From a virus (Duplodnaviria; Caudoviricetes), in the IMG/VR virus record IMGVR_UViG_3300030376_003034, positions 1 to 40,682 of that record: 40,682 bases of DNA. One strand, given 5' to 3'. Below are positions 10,485 through 40,680 of this stretch, piece after piece; position 1 is the first letter of the stretch; the number at the start of each line of letters is the position of its first letter. The notes below the pieces were generated by a model. That model saw nothing but the letters and a program-made list of their open reading frames with translations, was not told the origin of the DNA and ran no database searches. The position numbers were made by a program, and so were the translations under genes.

Positions 10485-10561
10485 GGTTCCTTAGCTCAAC
10501 TGGATAGAGCAACTGCCTTCTAAGCAGTAGGTTGCAGGTTCGAGTCCTGCAGGGACCGCCA
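10485..10561 (+). tRNA. tRNA-Arg (anticodon TCT), 77 nt with encoded CCA
   Basis: Full cloverleaf: GGTTCCT/AGGGACC acceptor, GCTC/GAGC D-stem, ACTGC-CTTCTAA-GCAGT, GCAGG-TTCGAGT-CCTGC, G-CCA. Confidence 0.95.
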
Positions 10562-10562
10562 G

Positions 10563-13500
10563 TTATGCTGAGAGAGCACCTCTACCCATTGACAGAGCTG
10601 CTTGTTCCTCTTCTTCTTCACGCTCACCTACAGCAAGCATAGCCATGATTGTGGCTACGACAGCAGCAAGTGGAGCTGAGTAGAATTGCACAATATTCGA
10701 TGTCGGTGATGTAGCTGAGTTAAGCAACTTCTGCACAAACGCAGCTGCATTAGGTGCCTGTCTTTTAAAACCGGCTGGGTCTATAAAGTATGCAGATATT
10801 GCGTCAGCTAAAAGCTCTGAAGGCCTGTGCAGATAGGTAACTTCATGCTGTCGTATAGCATAATCAGATATGCGATATGCCTCTAACTTTTCGTAAACTT
10901 GGCGTATACGAGCTTGGTCTACAACCTCACCTGCATCATTTCTAATATCCAGTACACCTTTACGCTGCAGGTTAACAAGTTCATCTACAATAGACTGAGC
11001 TTGCTGCTGATCCATTTGCATTTGCTTTTTATCAGGGTTCTTAACTTTCTTATCTGCAGCAGCATACATAACTTGCACTAGATAAGAACGTAAACTGTTA
11101 GCCGTAATGCTTGGGTCTGCCATAACACCACCTTCAGTGATGCGAGGGAAACCTGAGAAAGACTTAGTGCGTTCCCCTATTGGGTCAGATGACATTCTCT
11201 CGATGCCATGTCCTAACTCATGGAATGCATTAAATATAGCATGTGGCAGGTCTACGCTTTTCTCTTTGTTGCCTTTAGGGTGTGTATACTGATCAAGGAC
11301 AGCTATGACACCAGCAACCTGCTTCTGGTCTACAAGGTCAGTCAGTTTTCTGTTGGGGTCTCGTGGCTCTAACGCGAAGCCACCTATAAACTTATTACTG
11401 GGAGCTGACCTGCTCGTACCTACCCTTGCAGCTGTATCTTTAAACATCCTGCTGGGGTTAGCATAAATCTGAAATGTATAGCCTAATGCTTCACCAATGA
11501 GCTGAGCTACACGTCTGTCCTGTACACCATTCTCAAAAGGCGTTCCAGCTTTGCCTACGGTGATAGGACCACCTTGGCCTAGTACAGCTTCAGCTGCGCC
11601 TAGTTGGTCTCTTACTTCACCTTGGGTTGGCGGCCTAGAACTTCCGCTTCTACCTCTGGGGGTAAAGTTGAAATCAGCTCTGGTTGCTGGGCGAAGCTGA
11701 CCGGCTTGAGGTTCGCTAGTCCTGCTATCAGGGCGTCCATCGCCTCGTCTGGGCACTGCTCCACTATCGAGCCTGTCTCGCTCTGCATTGCTGAGTGCTT
11801 CTTGGATTTGCTCATCTGTTATACCTTCTCTGGTTGCAGCAAGTTTAGCTGCGTCTAGATAATCGTTGTCTTCACCCTTACCTTTTGCAATGCCCATCTT
11901 CTCAGCAAGCTGCTTTTCTGGGTACCACATTAAGGCTTGGAAGTCGGCAGTATTTATATCATATCCCTGCTCAGATAACAACTCACGAGCCCTCTGCACA
12001 ACCTCACGCATGTATGAACGCTCAGGTCCATCCAAAGGGGAAGCCTGTAGCTTGTCAAACATCTTGTCTTTGTGTGTTCCAACAGCTGCTATCCACTTAG
12101 GCTTTACGTGATTCTTGCCAGTTCTGTTCTTATAGCGATTAAAGAACCGCTGATATCCAGCTGCTAGTTCTGCTATAACTTTATCGAAACGCTCAGGGTC
12201 TGTGTACAGCCCTCTACGTGTCTCACCTGTAGCCTCCAATGCCTCATCAACTAGACGCTTCATGTCTTTATCTTTGGTATCGATAATGCCACGCTTGATG
12301 ATGTTTCTACGTTTTAGGATGTTCTTTTCTGTTGATGGTGCCTCGAAAGGTCTGCCCACTAGCCGGTTCCACATACGCATCCACCAGATGTCCATGGTCA
12401 AGGGCTCGAAGTTACCACGTAGGTTCTGATAGAAGCCTTGCCCAATCTTAGGACCTAGCACATAGCTACCTTTAACGATTGTATCTACGCTTTCCTGTGA
12501 GCCTATAGTTATGTTGGTACCATTAGCTTCGTTAAATCTTTTTATGAACTCGCGCAGTTCCGCTACGGTGTAGTCATTATCCATAAACTGTTCTAGTGAC
12601 ATGTTCTGGCCTGACCGTTGCCAAGCATTAAAGAACTTGAAGCTATTACGCATAGCTTTGTTGCGTTCACCGCCTTGCTTGAAGTCCTCAGGCATGACGC
12701 CTGTGTCCAAGTAAGTTCTAAACGCATCAAGGGCGTACTTGAAGTTCTCTGTTACCGCTTGCCCGTTAGATGTAACAGCCAGTGCGAAGTCAAAGGCTTG
12801 TTCATTTGCATCAATGCGAGGCTCAATGATACGCAGTACGTCCTTAGCAGCTCTCAGCGTTGCGTCATACCAACCTATTGCGCTGTCATCTTTCTGCAGA
12901 GCCTGTAGACCTTCAGTTGCCATCATACGTGCAATTCGTTCTACGTTCTCAGGTGTGTATTCTAGTGGTGTATCCTGACCAGCAACTTGTTTCCACTTTT
13001 CAAACACATTGCCATAAGCAACCTCTAGCTTAGTTCTCTGCTCTGGAACAAACGTGCCTTCTTTCATCTCTGCAAGTTCTGCGTCTGTAGGCATCATGCC
13101 AACAGATGTCATACCTATGTCATCACCAATACCGAATGGGTCACTGGCCTCTGACAGAACCGGCTGCTGCTGCATGTTTAGGATGGGCTGCTGCTCTGGC
13201 TCAACTCTTATTGTGTCATAAATGACATGTTCTTTACCTTTGCTAGTTCTAATCTTAGCAACAGGGTTGCCTAAAGTCATAACACCATGACCAGATGGAC
13301 GCAAAAACGGCTGGTCTCCTGCCTTGATGTTAGATTGGTCTTTATCTAATGTTGTAGGGACATCCAGCTGCAAGTCTAAGGTGTAGTAATGCTTTTTAGG
13401 CTCACCTCTTTTCGGACTATGCACAAAAGCAACTAAGAACTCTTGGTCATTTTCACCTCTGTCGTGACCCTGTGGACGTTCACTCCAGTTCCACAGATTC

Positions 13501-16136
13501 ATGGTCTTTTTGCCATTTTTAGAAGTGTTAAACTTCTTATATAAGTTAGTTCTAAATGGCCTACCTAAAGACTTATCATCTGCTTTACCTTCCAGCTGCT
13601 GAGTAGCATCAACTTCCATGCCACCGAAGCCTTTAGGATTGATGTATATACGTGCACCGTCATATGTATTACCTGAGATGATATCTCCTTGCGGCACAGC
13701 GATATACTGACCCTCAGCATCAAACTGACCCAGTACTTTCTCTGACTGCAAAGGTGGTACAGGACGTACAGCCTGACCTTCGCCAATCTCTGGCACTGCC
13801 ATGAAGTTGGTTTCTACGTCTGCATCATTAGCCTGTTGGCCTACAACACGATTAATGTACGGCATCAGATATGTGTCAGCCAGCTCAGGTTGCTGCAGCT
13901 TTGCCTCTGCTCGCGCTGCGATATCCATTGCACGTTCAGCTGGGTTAGAACCTAAGTTGCTGCGTAGGTCTGCTAGAGCTTCGATAAGCACAAGTTTGTC
14001 TAGAGGTGCAATATTAGCATTACCATTTACAGCTTCTACGAGTGCATCATTAGCAGCTCTGTTGTCTTCAATGCCCCTCAGGTAGCCAGCTGATTCAGCC
14101 GGTGAAGGGTTAGCTGCTTGTGCTTGTGGTGCGATAGGTGTTTTGTCGCGTGTGACGCTGGTCTGGTTCTGATCCAGAGCAGTTCGCATAGCTGCACCGA
14201 TAGCTGTGAGGTTTGTTACTCTGCCACCTTCTTTGATGCTGCGAATCATGTCATCTGCATCACGTCTAACTGTAGGCATTGATGCTTTCATCTCTTCCAA
14301 CAGCTTTACAGCTTGCTGTGGTGACAGACCCATCTCTTTCAGCATTGTGTCTAATTGCAGGAACGGTAAGTCACCATTCTGTGCATAGAGCTCTTTGTGT
14401 ATCTCTTTTGCTCTTCTGGCATCAGCAGATGCAGCTGCTTTTAATGCTTCAGCTTCACGTTGACGTGCTCTGCGAACAGACGGAGAGCCGCTTGTATCGA
14501 TACCCTCAGAGGCTTCTACGTTGTCACTGATGTATTTTGCAACACGGCTTCTACGGCCCGTCAGGGCGTCTACAGTGCGTCCCGTTAAAACGGCTGCACC
14601 TTGTACCGCTGGAATAAGGGGGTTTACAGAGGCACCATACAGGGTACCTAGCACCCGTGTTGGTGTCTCAATAAGGCTGCGGTCAGAGTAACCTACGTTG
14701 GATGGTACAGGTGATAGCTGGTCTGTGTACTGAGACAGGCCGCCTATGTAACCTTCGTTATGCAGTGTAGTCAGCTCATTCATCTGCCTCATCAGAGACA
14801 GCATCCGCTGACCTTCCTGTGTGTTACCAACCAGCCTGTCAACAGCTTGCATCTCTTCGACACCGACTGTGCTCTTGGCTTTGTTACGTGCTTCTCGCTG
14901 CGCTGCAATAGCCATGACCTTATCCATGACTACAGACAGCTCATCTTGGTCAGTTATGCCTAGTTGTGCTTTGAGGTCACGAGCGAGCTGCTTGAGCTCT
15001 TCGGTCATTTGAATGTGCGCTTTATCAACAGCCTCACGAGCACCCTTTGTGCTACTCTTGCCTACATCACGCAGGTTTAGGTCATTAGCTTGTGCGATAC
15101 GGTCTAGACGCACTGCAAGCTCTGTAGCTGCCTGTGGGTCATTACCTACCATCACTGGGTTCAGTACCTCACCAGCCTCAGTCAGCTGTTGTGCAGCAGC
15201 TTCGCGTGTGCTTGAAGCTGTAGGTGCAAGATTAGTGACTGCGGATGTACCGCCACCTATGCCTGTTCCTAAGGCTCCTGCTTCTATCTGCCGGTCAATG
15301 ATTTCCTGTGGTGTATACTTGCCGCCCTGTGCAGCTGTAGTAGCTACCACAGCAGCATCTTGTCCCATTTCTGTGGCACCTTCTCCAACAGCAGCCTTGC
15401 TCACTTTGGATGCATATGCCTGTGCAGCATCACCAAAGCCTTTCTGTGAAAGCTCTTGGATAACTTCCTCAGCTGTCATATTGGATAGTTTATTTGTGGG
15501 TATAACTTTACCGGCACCAAAGCGGTCAAGAAAGGCAATAAGTGCGCCTGTTCCCAGAGCTACATTCTCATCATAATTGCCACCTAGCTTCTGCTCTTGC
15601 TCTAATGCAGATTCGCCGGTACCCATCAAGAATGAGCCGCCTGTAGCTGTTGCCGCTGTTGTAAAAGTTAGCCATGCAGGGGCAGAAAACAGCGCAGGAA
15701 CTAGACCTGCAATCGCCATACCACCGCTAGGCAAAGTCTCAAGCAGCTTCTCACCAAAAGCAGGTAGTAAGTTACCTTCTCCTTCTTGGTAATATTCACG
15801 CAGAGTTTTAGGATACTCTGGCTGATAACCACCTTCAGCAATGTCTTGCTGCTGGTTAGCAACAACTTGCGATCCATACTTTTCTATACCTTCGTTGCCT
15901 GTGCGTCTTCCAGCTGCTTCAATACCTTTGCCCATCAACATTTGAAGCTGGTCAACACCAAATGCAAGTGGACCATCAGTTCCCTGAGGTTGAGGTGCAG
16001 CTGGTTGTTGTTGTTGCTGCTGTGGCTGACTTCTGAGCTGCTTGTAAGCGTTAGCAACTGTGTCAAACTCAGGCGTACCTTTCCTGTTCTGATTAGCGAC
16101 TAGCCAATCAGCGTACTTCTGCATTTGCTGTGACAT
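10563..16136 (-). CDS. Large internal virion / DNA-ejection protein, multidomain (HhH-GPD-like and zincin-like motifs)
   Basis: 1857 aa; third of three Ala/Gln/Gly-rich genes after the nozzle; hydrophobic segments; GPKIG..TMDIWWMR..FQALMW and HELGH..ELLAD motifs. Confidence 0.7.
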   Translation of the reverse strand: MSQQMQKYADWLVANQNRKGTPEFDTVANAYKQLRSQPQQQQQQPAAPQPQGTDGPLAFGVDQLQMLMGKGIEAAGRRTGNEGIEKYGSQVVANQQQDIAEGGYQPEYPKTLREYYQEGEGNLLPAFGEKLLETLPSGGMAIAGLVPALFSAPAWLTFTTAATATGGSFLMGTGESALEQEQKLGGNYDENVALGTGALIAFLDRFGAGKVIPTNKLSNMTAEEVIQELSQKGFGDAAQAYASKVSKAAVGEGATEMGQDAAVVATTAAQGGKYTPQEIIDRQIEAGALGTGIGGGTSAVTNLAPTASSTREAAAQQLTEAGEVLNPVMVGNDPQAATELAVRLDRIAQANDLNLRDVGKSSTKGAREAVDKAHIQMTEELKQLARDLKAQLGITDQDELSVVMDKVMAIAAQREARNKAKSTVGVEEMQAVDRLVGNTQEGQRMLSLMRQMNELTTLHNEGYIGGLSQYTDQLSPVPSNVGYSDRSLIETPTRVLGTLYGASVNPLIPAVQGAAVLTGRTVDALTGRRSRVAKYISDNVEASEGIDTSGSPSVRRARQREAEALKAAASADARRAKEIHKELYAQNGDLPFLQLDTMLKEMGLSPQQAVKLLEEMKASMPTVRRDADDMIRSIKEGGRVTNLTAIGAAMRTALDQNQTSVTRDKTPIAPQAQAANPSPAESAGYLRGIEDNRAANDALVEAVNGNANIAPLDKLVLIEALADLRSNLGSNPAERAMDIAARAEAKLQQPELADTYLMPYINRVVGQQANDADVETNFMAVPEIGEGQAVRPVPPLQSEKVLGQFDAEGQYIAVPQGDIISGNTYDGARIYINPKGFGGMEVDATQQLEGKADDKSLGRPFRTNLYKKFNTSKNGKKTMNLWNWSERPQGHDRGENDQEFLVAFVHSPKRGEPKKHYYTLDLQLDVPTTLDKDQSNIKAGDQPFLRPSGHGVMTLGNPVAKIRTSKGKEHVIYDTIRVEPEQQPILNMQQQPVLSEASDPFGIGDDIGMTSVGMMPTDAELAEMKEGTFVPEQRTKLEVAYGNVFEKWKQVAGQDTPLEYTPENVERIARMMATEGLQALQKDDSAIGWYDATLRAAKDVLRIIEPRIDANEQAFDFALAVTSNGQAVTENFKYALDAFRTYLDTGVMPEDFKQGGERNKAMRNSFKFFNAWQRSGQNMSLEQFMDNDYTVAELREFIKRFNEANGTNITIGSQESVDTIVKGSYVLGPKIGQGFYQNLRGNFEPLTMDIWWMRMWNRLVGRPFEAPSTEKNILKRRNIIKRGIIDTKDKDMKRLVDEALEATGETRRGLYTDPERFDKVIAELAAGYQRFFNRYKNRTGKNHVKPKWIAAVGTHKDKMFDKLQASPLDGPERSYMREVVQRARELLSEQGYDINTADFQALMWYPEKQLAEKMGIAKGKGEDNDYLDAAKLAATREGITDEQIQEALSNAERDRLDSGAVPRRGDGRPDSRTSEPQAGQLRPATRADFNFTPRGRSGSSRPPTQGEVRDQLGAAEAVLGQGGPITVGKAGTPFENGVQDRRVAQLIGEALGYTFQIYANPSRMFKDTAARVGTSRSAPSNKFIGGFALEPRDPNRKLTDLVDQKQVAGVIAVLDQYTHPKGNKEKSVDLPHAIFNAFHELGHGIERMSSDPIGERTKSFSGFPRITEGGVMADPSITANSLRSYLVQVMYAAADKKVKNPDKKQMQMDQQQAQSIVDELVNLQRKGVLDIRNDAGEVVDQARIRQVYEKLEAYRISDYAIRQHEVTYLHRPSELLADAISAYFIDPAGFKRQAPNAAAFVQKLLNSATSPTSNIVQFYSAPLAAVVATIMAMLAVGEREEEEEQAALSMGRGALSA

Positions 16137-16137
16137 A

Positions 16138-17214
16138 TTAGTTTCCTACGATGGCATCTGCTGCGCTATAGTCGTATCCTTGTTGTGCAGGGGCTTCACC
16201 TTCTCTACCTGCTTGCATAATCTGACGAAGTTGGTTAACAGACGCCTCTGAACCAGCTGGGGGCTGGAATGAGTGCCCATCAAATCCATGAATCAGAGTA
16301 TTATAGACCCACTGGAACATCTGCAGGTTATAACGAAGCTGAGCAGGTGATTGGTCTTGGTCCAAATTACCGAACACAGACTGTAAGAAGTTAAGTTCTA
16401 AGTTAGATACTTGACCCAACGCACCACCTGTAGGTGAGTTGTCTCTCATATCCTGCAGCTTATCAAAGCCAGCATTCGCTTTAACAGCATCTAGAAGACG
16501 CTCTAGGTTCTTGGCATCAGTAGCTGGTAATATCTTCAGATAAGAACCTACACCAGCTGAGAAGTTGCTGATTAGTGGTATAGCTCTGCCTATGGCATCA
16601 TTAACAACAATAGAACCAAGCATTGCAGCTGGATTATCACCACCTTTACCTTTACCCTGAGCTTTCATCAGAGCTTGCAGACCTTTGTTATATGAGTTCA
16701 ACTCAGCTTGATACTGTGCTGCATCTGTTGCGCGGTTAGCATCTTGAATACGTCCATAGGCAGCTAAGCCTTTGTCCATTGCATTCAGACCACCGTCAGC
16801 TGCGCCACCCATAATCGCGCCACCCACTCGCATTAGCATCTCATTTGTTCCTATGCGGTTGTTAGCTGGTGGTGTTGGAGGTGTAAGGCTGAACGGTGTC
16901 ATTTTACGCTGCTGGTCTGTTGCACCGACTGCGCGATTTGTTTGCGGTATAGTTAAACGAGGTGCCTGTGTACCGTCAGGACGCATTGTTAGTAGCGATG
17001 GGTCTGCACTTTTAGCTGCTTGCGTGTAGACATCGTTCTGCATTGATGATGGTGTTGTACGGGGAGCAGGAGCAGGTGCATTTATGTTTGACAATATAGC
17101 TCTGCCAGTAGGTACAACTTGGTTATTATAAAAGCTATTGATTGCGTCAGACAGAGGGTTATTCATAGGGCCGTATAGGGCTTCCTGTTGTCTTCTATAT
17201 TCATCAAATGTCAT
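16138..17214 (-). CDS. Internal virion / ejection protein
   Basis: About 358 aa; 'KANAGFDKLQDMR..SPTGGALGQVSN.E' motif; GAGGGG RBS favours ATG 17214. Confidence 0.65.
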   Translation of the reverse strand: MTFDEYRRQQEALYGPMNNPLSDAINSFYNNQVVPTGRAILSNINAPAPAPRTTPSSMQNDVYTQAAKSADPSLLTMRPDGTQAPRLTIPQTNRAVGATDQQRKMTPFSLTPPTPPANNRIGTNEMLMRVGGAIMGGAADGGLNAMDKGLAAYGRIQDANRATDAAQYQAELNSYNKGLQALMKAQGKGKGGDNPAAMLGSIVVNDAIGRAIPLISNFSAGVGSYLKILPATDAKNLERLLDAVKANAGFDKLQDMRDNSPTGGALGQVSNLELNFLQSVFGNLDQDQSPAQLRYNLQMFQWVYNTLIHGFDGHSFQPPAGSEASVNQLRQIMQAGREGEAPAQQGYDYSAADAIVGN

Positions 17215-17225
17215 CGTCAGCCCCC

Positions 17226-18260
17226 TCAAAATCCATATGGGTTGTCACCGAAGCCCATGCCTCTAGAACCCATATTCGGAGCAAGCCCCTGTGCTTGCAT
17301 CACTGCTGGCTGCATAGGCGCAAATTGAGCACCTAACTGGTTGCCAAAACCGTAGCCTGACATCATGCCGCCTACAGTAGCTGAAAGTGGGTCAACCATG
17401 TTGGCTGGCACTTGTCCTACGGATTGAGGCGAATTGTTTAGTATGCCGGCATTGTATTTTGAGTACAGGTCCATCTGGAAATCACGGTCTCCCTCGAACC
17501 TTGCCCTGTCATCATTCATGCGGCCTTGTTCATCAGCTCGCAGCATTTCACCAGTTTGAATCATCTGATTAGCACCAGCATTCTGCATACCTTGATTATA
17601 CAGAGCACCTAGGTTCTGATTGGCAGTTGTCATGTTAGCAAGACGGTTCTGCTGCTCTGTCAGGGACCTGTTCATTAGTCTGTCTTGAATGTTTGCTGTT
17701 GTATCAGCCATGCGGTCTTGGAAACCGCGCTGAGCGATTGCTTCAGCTACACCTCTTCGGCTGCTGTTAGTGTTACCTGTCTGTGATGAACTCACGCCTG
17801 CCTGTGGCAGTGTGTTTTCCATAAGGTTGCGATAATCATCGCGCATTGCTTGAGCAATTAGAGGGTCAGCATTGTTAGCTGCATACTGCTGTGCGTTACT
17901 AAGCATGTTTTGAGAGGCTTGGTTATATAAGTTACCGTAGTTCTGACCAAAGCCACGTCCAATGTCCATGAAACCTGCAGCATCATTAGCCCCCATCTGA
18001 CCTGTATTCATCATGCTGTTGATGCCGTCTGTCTGCTGTTGATTTAGACCGGCATATGTGGGGCCTTGGTAGTAACCTTGGTCTAAAGCATAGTTAAGAC
18101 CTTCGGTGCCACCCTTATACATATCGGATATGTAAGGCTTGGCTAGATTAAACCCAGCCATCTGCGCTTGAATGGCAGCATCCTGAGCTTTTTGCTGACT
18201 TCTTGCTGCACTATGAGCTAACAGACCGCCAGCTATAGTGCCAAAAGCTGCTAAAGACAT
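17226..18260 (-). CDS. Internal virion / DNA-transfer (pilot) protein
   Basis: 344 aa; Gln/Gly/Ala/Met-rich, hydrophobic Gly-rich N-terminus, 'TNSSR' motif. Confidence 0.65.
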   Translation of the reverse strand: MSLAAFGTIAGGLLAHSAARSQQKAQDAAIQAQMAGFNLAKPYISDMYKGGTEGLNYALDQGYYQGPTYAGLNQQQTDGINSMMNTGQMGANDAAGFMDIGRGFGQNYGNLYNQASQNMLSNAQQYAANNADPLIAQAMRDDYRNLMENTLPQAGVSSSQTGNTNSSRRGVAEAIAQRGFQDRMADTTANIQDRLMNRSLTEQQNRLANMTTANQNLGALYNQGMQNAGANQMIQTGEMLRADEQGRMNDDRARFEGDRDFQMDLYSKYNAGILNNSPQSVGQVPANMVDPLSATVGGMMSGYGFGNQLGAQFAPMQPAVMQAQGLAPNMGSRGMGFGDNPYGF

Positions 18261-21820: not shown

Positions 21821-21898
21821 CCATGGAATCAAATGCAAGTGAGCAGACTTTAGTCAGCATACTACCGCTTGTCACCTTAGGTCTCTTTAGTATATCTA

Positions 21899-21914
21899 TA
21901 GGGTGGGACACCTT
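21899..21914 (-). promoter_or_regulatory. Phage RNAP promoter AAGGTGTCCCACCCTA, here followed by TAG; faces the structural module
   Basis: Exact 16-mer also at 30651, 33204 and 37556; CAC..TATAG end resembles T7/SP6 promoters. Confidence 0.8.
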
Positions 21915-30615: not shown

Positions 30616-30650
30616 ATTGTGACCTCTTTTTTATCTGTTTCACATTACGC

Positions 30651-30666
30651 TAGGGTGGGACACCTT
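30651..30666 (-). promoter_or_regulatory. Phage RNAP promoter driving the replication genes
   Basis: Exact 16-mer AAGGTGTCCCACCCTA; overlaps the RNAP stop codon. Confidence 0.8.
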
Positions 30667-33173: not shown

Positions 33174-33203
33174 TCTAATTCCCCTTGGTGCTCCCAGTTA
33201 GTC

Positions 33204-33219
33204 TAGGGTGGGACACCTT
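33204..33219 (-). promoter_or_regulatory. Phage RNAP promoter directly upstream of the RNAP gene
   Basis: Exact 16-mer, 30 nt before ATG 33173. Confidence 0.8.
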
Positions 33220-37534: not shown

Positions 37535-37555
37535 ACAATTAGTGTCTGATTAGCT

Positions 37556-37571
37556 TAGGGTGGGACACCTT
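37556..37571 (-). promoter_or_regulatory. Phage RNAP promoter upstream of the early region
   Basis: Exact 16-mer AAGGTGTCCCACCCTA. Confidence 0.78.
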
Positions 37572-40573: not shown

Positions 40574-40680
40574 GCGTTACGTACTCCATACAAATATGCT
40601 GTGCCTTGCGCTATATCACCATATCCAAAATAAAACTTTATACCTCTAATTGCATCACTGGCAGCCTGCTGATAAATATC
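40570..40680 (-). CDS. 3' end of the long tail fibre gene (continuation of 1..2549)
   Basis: ...AQGTAYLYGVRNA*; TGA at 40572-40570 overlaps the chaperone ATG. Confidence 0.85.
   Translation of the reverse strand, partial: DIYQQAASDAIRGIKFYFGYGDIAQGTAYLYGVRNA
40583..40680. repeat. Terminal direct repeat, copy 2
   Basis: Identical to 1-98. Confidence 0.95.

Follow-up and report, generated by a model that had tools for sequence, protein, structure and literature searches.

A predicted OGG-fold DNA-glycosylase-like domain in an exchangeable slot of a podophage ejection-type protein

The helix-hairpin-helix (HhH) 8-oxoguanine glycosylases (OGG enzymes) read their base through a short helix. In all three OGG subfamilies this is done by a Gln/Asp-x3-aromatic pair, which makes a bond to N1 and stacks on the guanine ring: Gln315/Phe319 in hOGG1, Gln278/Phe282 (with Trp243) in CacOGG1, Asp194/Trp198 in OGG2 and Asp218/Trp222 in AGOG. 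The catalytic residues of hOGG1 are Lys249 and Asp268 (PMC3397491). Base excision is also known as a bacterial defence against modified phages (Dag1, Brig1), and Dag1 cuts 7-deazaguanine DNA using K118, D132, D184 and W188 (Getz et al., bioRxiv 10.1101/2025.10.29.685425). On the phage side, T7-like and P22-like ejection genes form a small operon with the largest gene, gp16, last, and T7 gp16-C is cytoplasmic and binds entering DNA with no sequence preference (PMC8954989). Here we analyse a 40,682-base virus record (IMG/VR record IMGVR_UViG_3300030376_003034), called the window, meaning this whole stretch of DNA. Its minus strand encodes a 1857-aa polyvalent protein (10563..16136), which holds a predicted OGG-fold HhH DNA-glycosylase-like domain at aa about 1060-1440 (11817..12959). 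Our favoured reading, to which we give a probability of roughly 0.35, is an ejected OGG-fold glycosylase/apurinic-apyrimidinic (AP) lyase that would cut non-standard guanines out of the phage's own entering DNA.

Conservation and predicted fold of the domain

A preliminary description had proposed a glycosylase-like domain of the endonuclease III (EndoIII)/OGG type in this open reading frame. The motifs it quoted are present, with GWY at aa 1088-1090, ALAVTS at 1118-1123 and DFQALMWY at 1398-1405; they and the stretch LGPKIG...TMDIWWMRMWNRL (aa 1227-1259) all fall inside 11900-12880. The Lys-to-Asp spacing of 19 that it gave was recovered, from K1230 (nt 12449-12447) to D1249 (nt 12392-12390). 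Its 'xxDxHxxR' context holds for the Asp and the Arg and fails for the His, the actual context being D-x-W-x-x-R. A G-x-K...D spacing alone is found in 77% of 2000 shuffles of the 1857-aa protein, which is chance level; the bare spacing was accordingly rejected as evidence, and the claim is carried by conservation and fold. A fuller motif pattern occurred in 0 of 2000 shuffles and was discounted, since that pattern had been drawn from the protein itself.

With aa 1040-1445 as query and a threshold of E ≤ 0.001, 562 of 6204 candidates (1021-3250 aa) scored as domain homologs, and 1806 representatives matched after 50% clustering. From the best 150 of these representatives, 136 diverse homologous domains (about 32-67% identity) were aligned. 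No substitution is seen at W1089, Y1090, S1123, G1228, K1230, F1235, N1238, T1247, D1249, W1251 or R1258 in any covering row (135/135), and both the predicted Lys and the predicted Asp are conserved. P1367 and R1373 are likewise invariant (133/133 covering rows), as are Q1400, W1404 and E1407 (132/132). Counting the query, 132 rows have a Lys-Asp spacing of 19 and 4 have one of 18. The ratio of nonsynonymous to synonymous substitution rates is 0.22 against locus L002 and 0.16 against L006 (L numbers denote related loci), with two further pairs saturated. Conservation looks higher in the domain than in the flanking parts, a comparison that was set aside because the homologs had been chosen on the domain. 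In L103 and L154 the domain is broken over two reading frames, by a frameshift or an assembly error.

An AlphaFold2 model of the domain, built from a 54-row alignment, has a predicted local distance difference test score (pLDDT) of 94.2 and a predicted template modelling score of 0.89. Model helices 184-188 and 192-200 flank G-P-K, with the Lys at 191, and form a helix-hairpin-helix in which this Lys opens the second helix. A VIA-align structure search of 48,161 chains placed HhH-superfamily chains in all of its top 22 rows, of which 19 are titled glycosylase or endonuclease III, two are queuine-salvage enzymes (DUF2419) and one is PUGT; we take the last two kinds to belong to the HhH fold family as well. 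The best match is Thermotoga maritima OGG2 (3n0u; Z 10.4, root-mean-square deviation 4.5, 194 aligned of 209), and further Z values are 8.8 for queuine-salvage, 8.4 for NTHL1, 8.4 for ROS1, 8.3 for AGOG, 7.0 for PUGT and 6.5 for MutY; because VIA Z values under about 13 can be common among helical proteins, the case for the fold rests on family consistency. The first unrelated rows, at Z 6.0, are helical bundles that match only an insert of about 100 aa (aa 1265-1363; 12048..12344, minus strand). This helical insert carries 24 K/R and 15 D/E, is variable among homologs and, taken alone, matches unrelated helical bundles in structure comparison. Foldseek matched the domain model to 13 viral models (E ≤ 0.001), which come from phage proteins that are unnamed or of polyvalent type. 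With HhH chains ranking first and OGG2 best, the fold search agrees with the HhH fold put forward earlier, and the modelled domain very probably has the HhH glycosylase fold.

The nearest named family is DUF7178 (PF23802, phrog_3842). In Atlas, the domain lies next to DUF7178 clusters (0.96). Of 50 family members that were aligned, 36 match phrog_3842 when E values up to 0.1 are allowed; for DUF7178, 16 do so up to E 1, the lowest value being 0.00096. A compact DUF7178 domain inside a 3606-aa frame seeded a 24-row alignment in which every row is Pfam-positive (24 of 32 loci, one having been dropped for stops and the others as near-duplicates). HHalign of the window domain against this alignment gives 95.8% untrimmed and 97.7%, E 2e-12, without two inserts; reversed controls stay at or below 1%, and a smaller alignment (A2) reaches only 22.8%. 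The elements WY, S, N, K, F, N, T-x-D-x-W and QA-x-x-W stand in register between the two families, and the large helical insert is not found in compact DUF7178. The model of the compact domain (pLDDT 87.7) behaves similarly to that of the window domain: its top 25 VIA rows are all HhH, with 3n0u at Z 9.1 and the first unrelated row at 4.6, and its best Foldseek rows in PDB are OGG2 and AGOG (E 0.027-0.033; none at E ≤ 0.001). The window protein misses the gathering score of PF23802, and its domain is about twice as long as DUF7178. The domain is thus an enlarged relative of DUF7178 whose fold resembles that of OGG, not a Pfam member. A homolog search from the compact domain returned two proteins only; of 401 genomes from a single phylum, one matched the PF23802 profile, and PF07934, the OGG1 N-terminal A-domain, matched in 0 of 121.

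The queuine-salvage DUF2419 enzymes rank second in the domain VIA list, third for the compact model and first when Foldseek's list is re-ranked. Such rankings would suit a guanine-type N-glycosidase that acts on non-duplex targets, either free modified nucleotides or queuosine of host tRNA, and blunts signalling or translation. The domain nevertheless keeps the hairpin Lys, arginines at D+5 and D+9 and a plug loop typical of DNA-binding HhH enzymes, and we consider an activity of this kind quite improbable.

The active site and its likely substrate

The predicted catalytic center (all positions on the minus strand) is built around the hairpin G1228-x-K1230-x4-F1235-x2-N1238 (12423..12455), in which K1230 is the predicted nucleophile on the strength of the model helices, the spacing in OGG2 and conservation. 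It is followed by D1249-x-W1251 (12384..12392), which by analogy to OGG would supply the catalytic Asp and a phosphate-contacting position. The invariant W1089-Y1090 pair (12867..12872) is common to DUF7178. The T-S-N-G loop (aa 1122-1125; 12762..12773) is a candidate Asn/Gln plug; position 1124 is N in 111 rows and Q in 24, next to the invariant Ser (135/135). HHalign puts this loop on the equivalent OGG1-like loop with a non-significant score, and by analogy to the NNN motif (PMC3397491) it is likely to be the plug that fills the gap of the flipped base. Finally, Q1400-x3-W1404 (11925..11939) is a predicted guanine-reading helix that HHalign sets onto the D-x3-W of OGG2.

Comparison of the motifs places the domain close to OGG enzymes. 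OGG2 sequences (from PDB and as a consensus of 26 genome proteins) read G-x-K-x4-F-x2-N, with Asp at K+18 and a final D-x3-W-Y; the window domain reads G-x-K-x4-F-x2-N, with Asp at K+19 and Q-x3-W-Y. In OGG1-like genome proteins the motifs are D-R-W and a Q-x3 followed by an aromatic or aliphatic residue. Profile alignments by HHalign set K on K and D on D between the domain and OGG. The HhH segment matches an OGG1-like profile at E 0.001 (reversed control 0.55), the C-terminal segment matches OGG2 at E 0.0015 (reversed control 0.14) and a trimmed core matches OGG2 at E 0.0033, all within a series of 20 comparisons whose probabilities are a weak 5-21% and whose reversed controls lie at 0.03-0.78. 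The EndoIII half of the earlier resemblance did not stand, since the nearest kin are 8-oxoguanine glycosylases and DUF7178. EndoIII was rejected as nearest kin because the domain has no EndoIII or MutY profile match and no cysteines, which also means no iron-sulfur cluster.

The presence of ROS1, NTHL1 and PUGT among the fold matches could still point to another target or chemistry, namely excision of a modified pyrimidine in the manner of ROS1 or EndoIII, an AP lyase activity only, or a PUGT-like transferase that protects entering DNA. A stand-alone member in Methylobacterium hispanicum (L142) has a cytosine methyltransferase gene about 2.4 kb upstream, although this neighbourhood is one case. 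Set against these points, the C-terminal segment finds its match in OGG2 but in neither EndoIII nor MutY, OGG2 tops both wide fold searches, and the invariant Q-x3-W is also kept by canonical DUF7178 in the same slot; chemistry of this sort seems to us improbable. Stand-alone Methylobacterium members were seen twice, at L142:9719-11419 and L158:9779-10696, in the region after polA. The L142 copy keeps K, D and Q-x3-W, and the stand-alone member was possibly captured by its host.

For the favoured glycosylase/AP lyase, the alignment of Q-x3-W with the guanine-reading helix of 8-oxoguanine glycosylases indicates that the substrate is likely a non-standard guanine and not a pyrimidine of the EndoIII type; by this analogy a guanine derivative is somewhat more probable than not. 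The helix narrows the panel of substrates to a short list. 8-Oxoguanine itself is only a candidate, since the known 8-oxoguanine sensors are missing: the domain has neither Gly42 of the OGG1 A-domain, nor the C-terminal Lys of OGG2, nor the OGG2 His at K+4. The K+4 position is G1234 in 128 of 132 rows, a C-terminal Lys carboxylate is not possible in a domain internal to the protein, and PF07934 matches nowhere in the 1857-aa protein, whose modelled region is helical.

The carrier gene and its exchangeable slot

The 1857-aa gene holds the largest (gp16-like) ejection-gene slot, as judged from its reading frame and synteny. Upstream lie two ejection-like genes of 344 and 363 aa (16138..18260, minus strand), with matches to phrog_4287 ('DNA ejection protein', E 3.9e-15) and phrog_2534 (E 3.7e-6), the latter annotated as 'released from the phage upon host infection'. 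The gene order, nozzle-like/92 aa/ejection 1/ejection 2/1857-aa gene/putative small terminase/large terminase/portal, is repeated in the close related loci inspected. These neighbours and their recurring order support the ejection-gene position that had been suggested for the protein. By analogy of gene order, the 1857-aa protein is likely packaged and ejected with the genome.

Four parts can be told apart along the protein, all on the minus strand. The core spans aa 1 to about 785 (13782..16136) and is delimited by L283, L290 and L317, which encode proteins of 764-772 aa matching only aa 1-773. A variable module of unassigned fold follows (aa about 790-975; 13212..13769), which has no Pfam match and is absent in L270. 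The exchangeable cassette with the glycosylase-like domain covers aa about 983-1476 (11708..13190), bounded by breaks in DNA identity in L270 and L268. Last comes a zincin (MPTase-like) module (10706..11708), identified by conservation, with HExxH at aa 1639-1643 (nt 11222-11208) and E1774 (10817-10815). The zincin had been noted before in the same chain, and the alignment bears it out, with H1639, E1640, H1643 and E1774 invariant in 101 of 101 full-length homologs. Iyer et al. (2017, PMC5512222) propose that peptidases of this sort release the working units of polyvalent proteins by cleavage. Homologs of the domain-bearing protein also carry LPD38, LPD23, ART-PolyVal, methyltransferase or SNF2 domains. 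One named isolate, Limnohabitans phage DC33 (L001, PQ492659.1), encodes a 3125-aa protein (XLZ15523.1) that has an HExxH motif and bears the domain with every key residue preserved; its record is filed under Inoviridae, which fits poorly with a 39-kb genome bearing such genes.

The content of the slot was surveyed in relatives chosen by terminase and not by the domain. The best 80 of 294 matches were taken, of which 41 were informative, several of these loci being near-duplicates, and 39 too fragmentary. One of four glycosylase-like modules is present in 31 of the 41, an ART-like domain in three and neither in seven. The window-type family fills 24 slots, 18 with long and six with short-insert versions, and K, D and Q-x3-W are kept in the five short-insert sequences printed. 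Canonical DUF7178 occurs in four slots (E 1e-25 to 1e-29) and keeps Q-x3-W, and another module, whose BLASTP match to the window domain is not meaningful (best E 0.43), occurs in three. The ART-PolyVal-like domains (L337, L342, L310) include one above the Pfam cut-off and two below it. As for the seven relatives with neither, three have a core of about 765 aa only and four have the core plus a zincin-like part (L306 by BLASTP only). The replacement module of the L268 type has K, D 18 residues later and H-x3-W invariant in 15 sequences (15 of 22 loci). It gives no informative Pfam match, scores 0.93 in Atlas to DUF7178-like clusters and aligns weakly in HHalign (OGG2 E 0.04, window family E 0.03). 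The invariant residues and the Atlas score suggest, weakly, that this module is glycosylase-like. It represents a second cargo family (L268:5738-7276; also L269, L277, L346-L367), mostly in large phage proteins.

Sister phages exchange several of these glycosylase-like families in one slot, and the evidence for this is direct. Sister tips of the terminase tree are unlike in slot content at no fewer than six places (window versus L268/L269, L277 versus L278, L271/L293 versus L273-L275, L301 versus L297/L299, L337 versus L344 and L342 versus L343), and sister phages whose terminases are 98% identical carry different content. In L270 the cassette shows 95.7% nucleotide identity to the window over 13190-11712 while neighbouring regions differ. 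In L268 the cassette is replaced: identity ends at 13149 and resumes at 11708, and the downstream 3.7 kb are 95.8% identical. Neighbouring modules, including the zincin, which is exchanged in L270, swap independently of the cassette. Such near-identical phages with different modules provide natural comparisons.

The survey also bears on whether the domain need be an enzyme at all. It might be a non-catalytic DNA grip for ejection, in keeping with the DNA binding of T7 gp16-C described above, or it might be removed during assembly and never delivered, given that the zincin in the same chain could trim the cargo. The seven relatives with core only or core plus zincin argue that the module is not needed for ejection, and for the same reason an essential structural part of the ejector was rejected. 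Moreover, the catalytic-type residues are invariant in the window family, and the replacement families again show K, D and [QH]-x3-W. We hold either version to be very doubtful, and keep to an ejected enzyme that acts on entering DNA as the favoured reading.

Profile library scans describe the window phage as a podophage with a T7-like RNA polymerase, DNA polymerase A, a primase-helicase and an integrase, and with a portal, capsid and adaptor of the SU10 type. CheckV estimates 99% completeness. There is no cultured close relative, portal matches being at or below 30%, and the upstream ejection genes have no match at the DNA level. Positions 1-98 and 40583-40680 form an identical 98-base end repeat, which suggests a complete circular assembly, though the record is classed as linear. 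A tRNA-Arg(TCT) at 10485-10561 on the plus strand lies antisense to the virion genes, between the stop of the 1857-aa gene and the putative small terminase. Four intergenic copies with an identical 16-base core (21885-21914, 30637-30666, 33190-33219 and 37542-37571) are likely phage RNA polymerase promoters on the minus strand.

Targets of the ejected protein and comparison with known systems

In the favoured reading, the base would be flipped, the gap plugged by N1124 and the base read by Q1400/W1404, after which D1249 would break the glycosidic bond and a Schiff base at K1230 could nick the strand. By analogy with characterised glycosylases, the domain is probably an active enzyme that flips, plugs, reads and cleaves, nicking through K1230. 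The protein would be packaged in the manner of gp16 and would come to lie exposed in the cytoplasm at the point of DNA entry, perhaps after release by the zincin, a route that we consider equally probable by comparison with gp16. Its target would be the phage's own DNA, carrying guanines that are oxidised or altered by the host, and the gap would be filled by host base-excision repair, which is the weakest step. Own entering DNA is favoured as the target because a gp16-like carrier would lie on the DNA path in few copies and because the family is widespread; the breadth of 1806 representatives suits a common lesion. If the domain is active, a widespread unannotated family gains a function that would be exercised before any phage gene is expressed.

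Several results weigh against this reading, beyond the low HHalign probabilities, the caveat on VIA Z values and the missing 8-oxoguanine sensors. Pfam, NCBIfam and PDB sequence searches of the domain returned no glycosylase match; no Pfam match appeared even at E ≤ 10, and phmmer and hmmsearch of PDB gave only noise. PHROGs and PADLOC scans also found no glycosylase, the PADLOC library predating Dag. Foldseek of the domain model against PDB had no match at E ≤ 0.001, HHalign runs were not significant (0.1% against EndoIII, 0.5% against OGG1-like), and the queuine-salvage enzymes come within 1-2 Z of OGG2 and AGOG. Hosts usually own Fpg. In addition, the slot content is exchanged for unrelated glycosylase-like modules or an ART-like domain, or is missing altogether, a pattern more in keeping with an arms race than with routine repair.

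The strongest rival takes up this last point. The protein may be an injected weapon, acting as Dag1 in reverse, which excises 7-deazaguanine-type bases from foreign DNA and nicks it while sparing the plain-G phage genome; its targets in the infected cell would be the host chromosome, where that is modified, a prophage residing there or another phage that co-infects. The four Dag1 residues named above represent the same K, D, D/Q-x3-W set. The queuine-salvage enzymes, which handle a 7-deazaguanine, reach Z 8.8-9.3, the 8-oxoguanine sensors are missing, and slot content differs between sister tips at those six or more places of the terminase tree. FolE was found neither in the window genome nor in 50 carrier records (19 of them at least 90% complete), and QueC in none of 51, nine of the carriers bearing compact DUF7178 and not the window-type family. 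The carriers hence show no sign of a 7-deazaguanine pathway of their own that the enzyme would damage, which fits the weapon and the favoured reading alike; this lack is probably the norm for small podophages and, with no matched non-carrier set, it barely discriminates. Furthermore, the domain is very widespread, whereas 7-deazaguanine DNA is uncommon in bacteria, and the exchange of neighbouring modules makes swapping not specific to the glycosylase-like domain. We regard an injected weapon as a close rival, a little less likely than the favoured reading.

A broader reading is that the ejection protein of podophages serves as a rack for injected guanine glycosylases that can replace one another, each tuned to host guanine chemistry. 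Members of the rack would erase defence-added adducts from the entering genome, or would destroy DNA that contains 7-deazaguanine, whether it belongs to the host or to rival phages. We offer this as a tentative proposal. If true, it would be a phage-side mirror of the Dag1/Brig1 defence, and DUF7178 and its sister families would gain a function.

A search of mostly open literature, with the supplements of PMC5512222 outside it, turned up no account of DUF7178, none of an HhH glycosylase carried in a virion and no paper on Limnohabitans phage DC33. In the portions available, PMC7824862 mentions only T4 endonuclease V, and PMC5336643 lists a stand-alone phage HhH-GPD gene. The window protein resembles the phage polyvalent proteins of PMC5512222 as a multi-domain protein with a zincin MPTase and an unrelated enzyme domain, encoded in a virion gene cluster. 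It differs from them in that the term 'glycosylase' is not in the main text of that article and no LPD model matches the window domain; an uncharacterised domain of that study could overlap it even so.

Among glycosylases, OGG2 (Tm1821 3n0u; M. jannaschii Ogg 3fhf/3knt; PF22175) is the best fold match for both models and shares the G-x-K-x4-F-x2-N hairpin, the Asp after the hairpin and a small-acid-hydrophobic-D/Q-x3-W-Y helix. Unlike OGG2, the window domain has Gln for Asp194, Trp for His at D+2 and Gly for His at K+4, contains two inserts, sits inside a 1857-aa phage protein and has no Pfam match. To OGG1 (human, Clostridium) it is alike in the Lys-Asp spacing of 19, as in hOGG1, in D-x-W, as in CacOGG1, and in Gln-x3-aromatic (PMC3397491), and OGG1 and AGOG match its fold at Z 7.3-8.4; the modelled window region differs from OGG1 in having no A-domain. 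The anti-phage glycosylases Dag1 and Dag2 share with the window domain the HhH fold, the K/D/D-x3-W set and, if the predicted substrate is correct, a modified-guanine target, in a comparison of residue pattern. They are stand-alone bacterial defence genes, whereas the window domain is phage-borne cargo in a virion slot. The kind of enzyme, an HhH glycosylase, is known; what is new in this setting is the predicted guanine-reading helix and the swapping of several glycosylase-like families in one slot.

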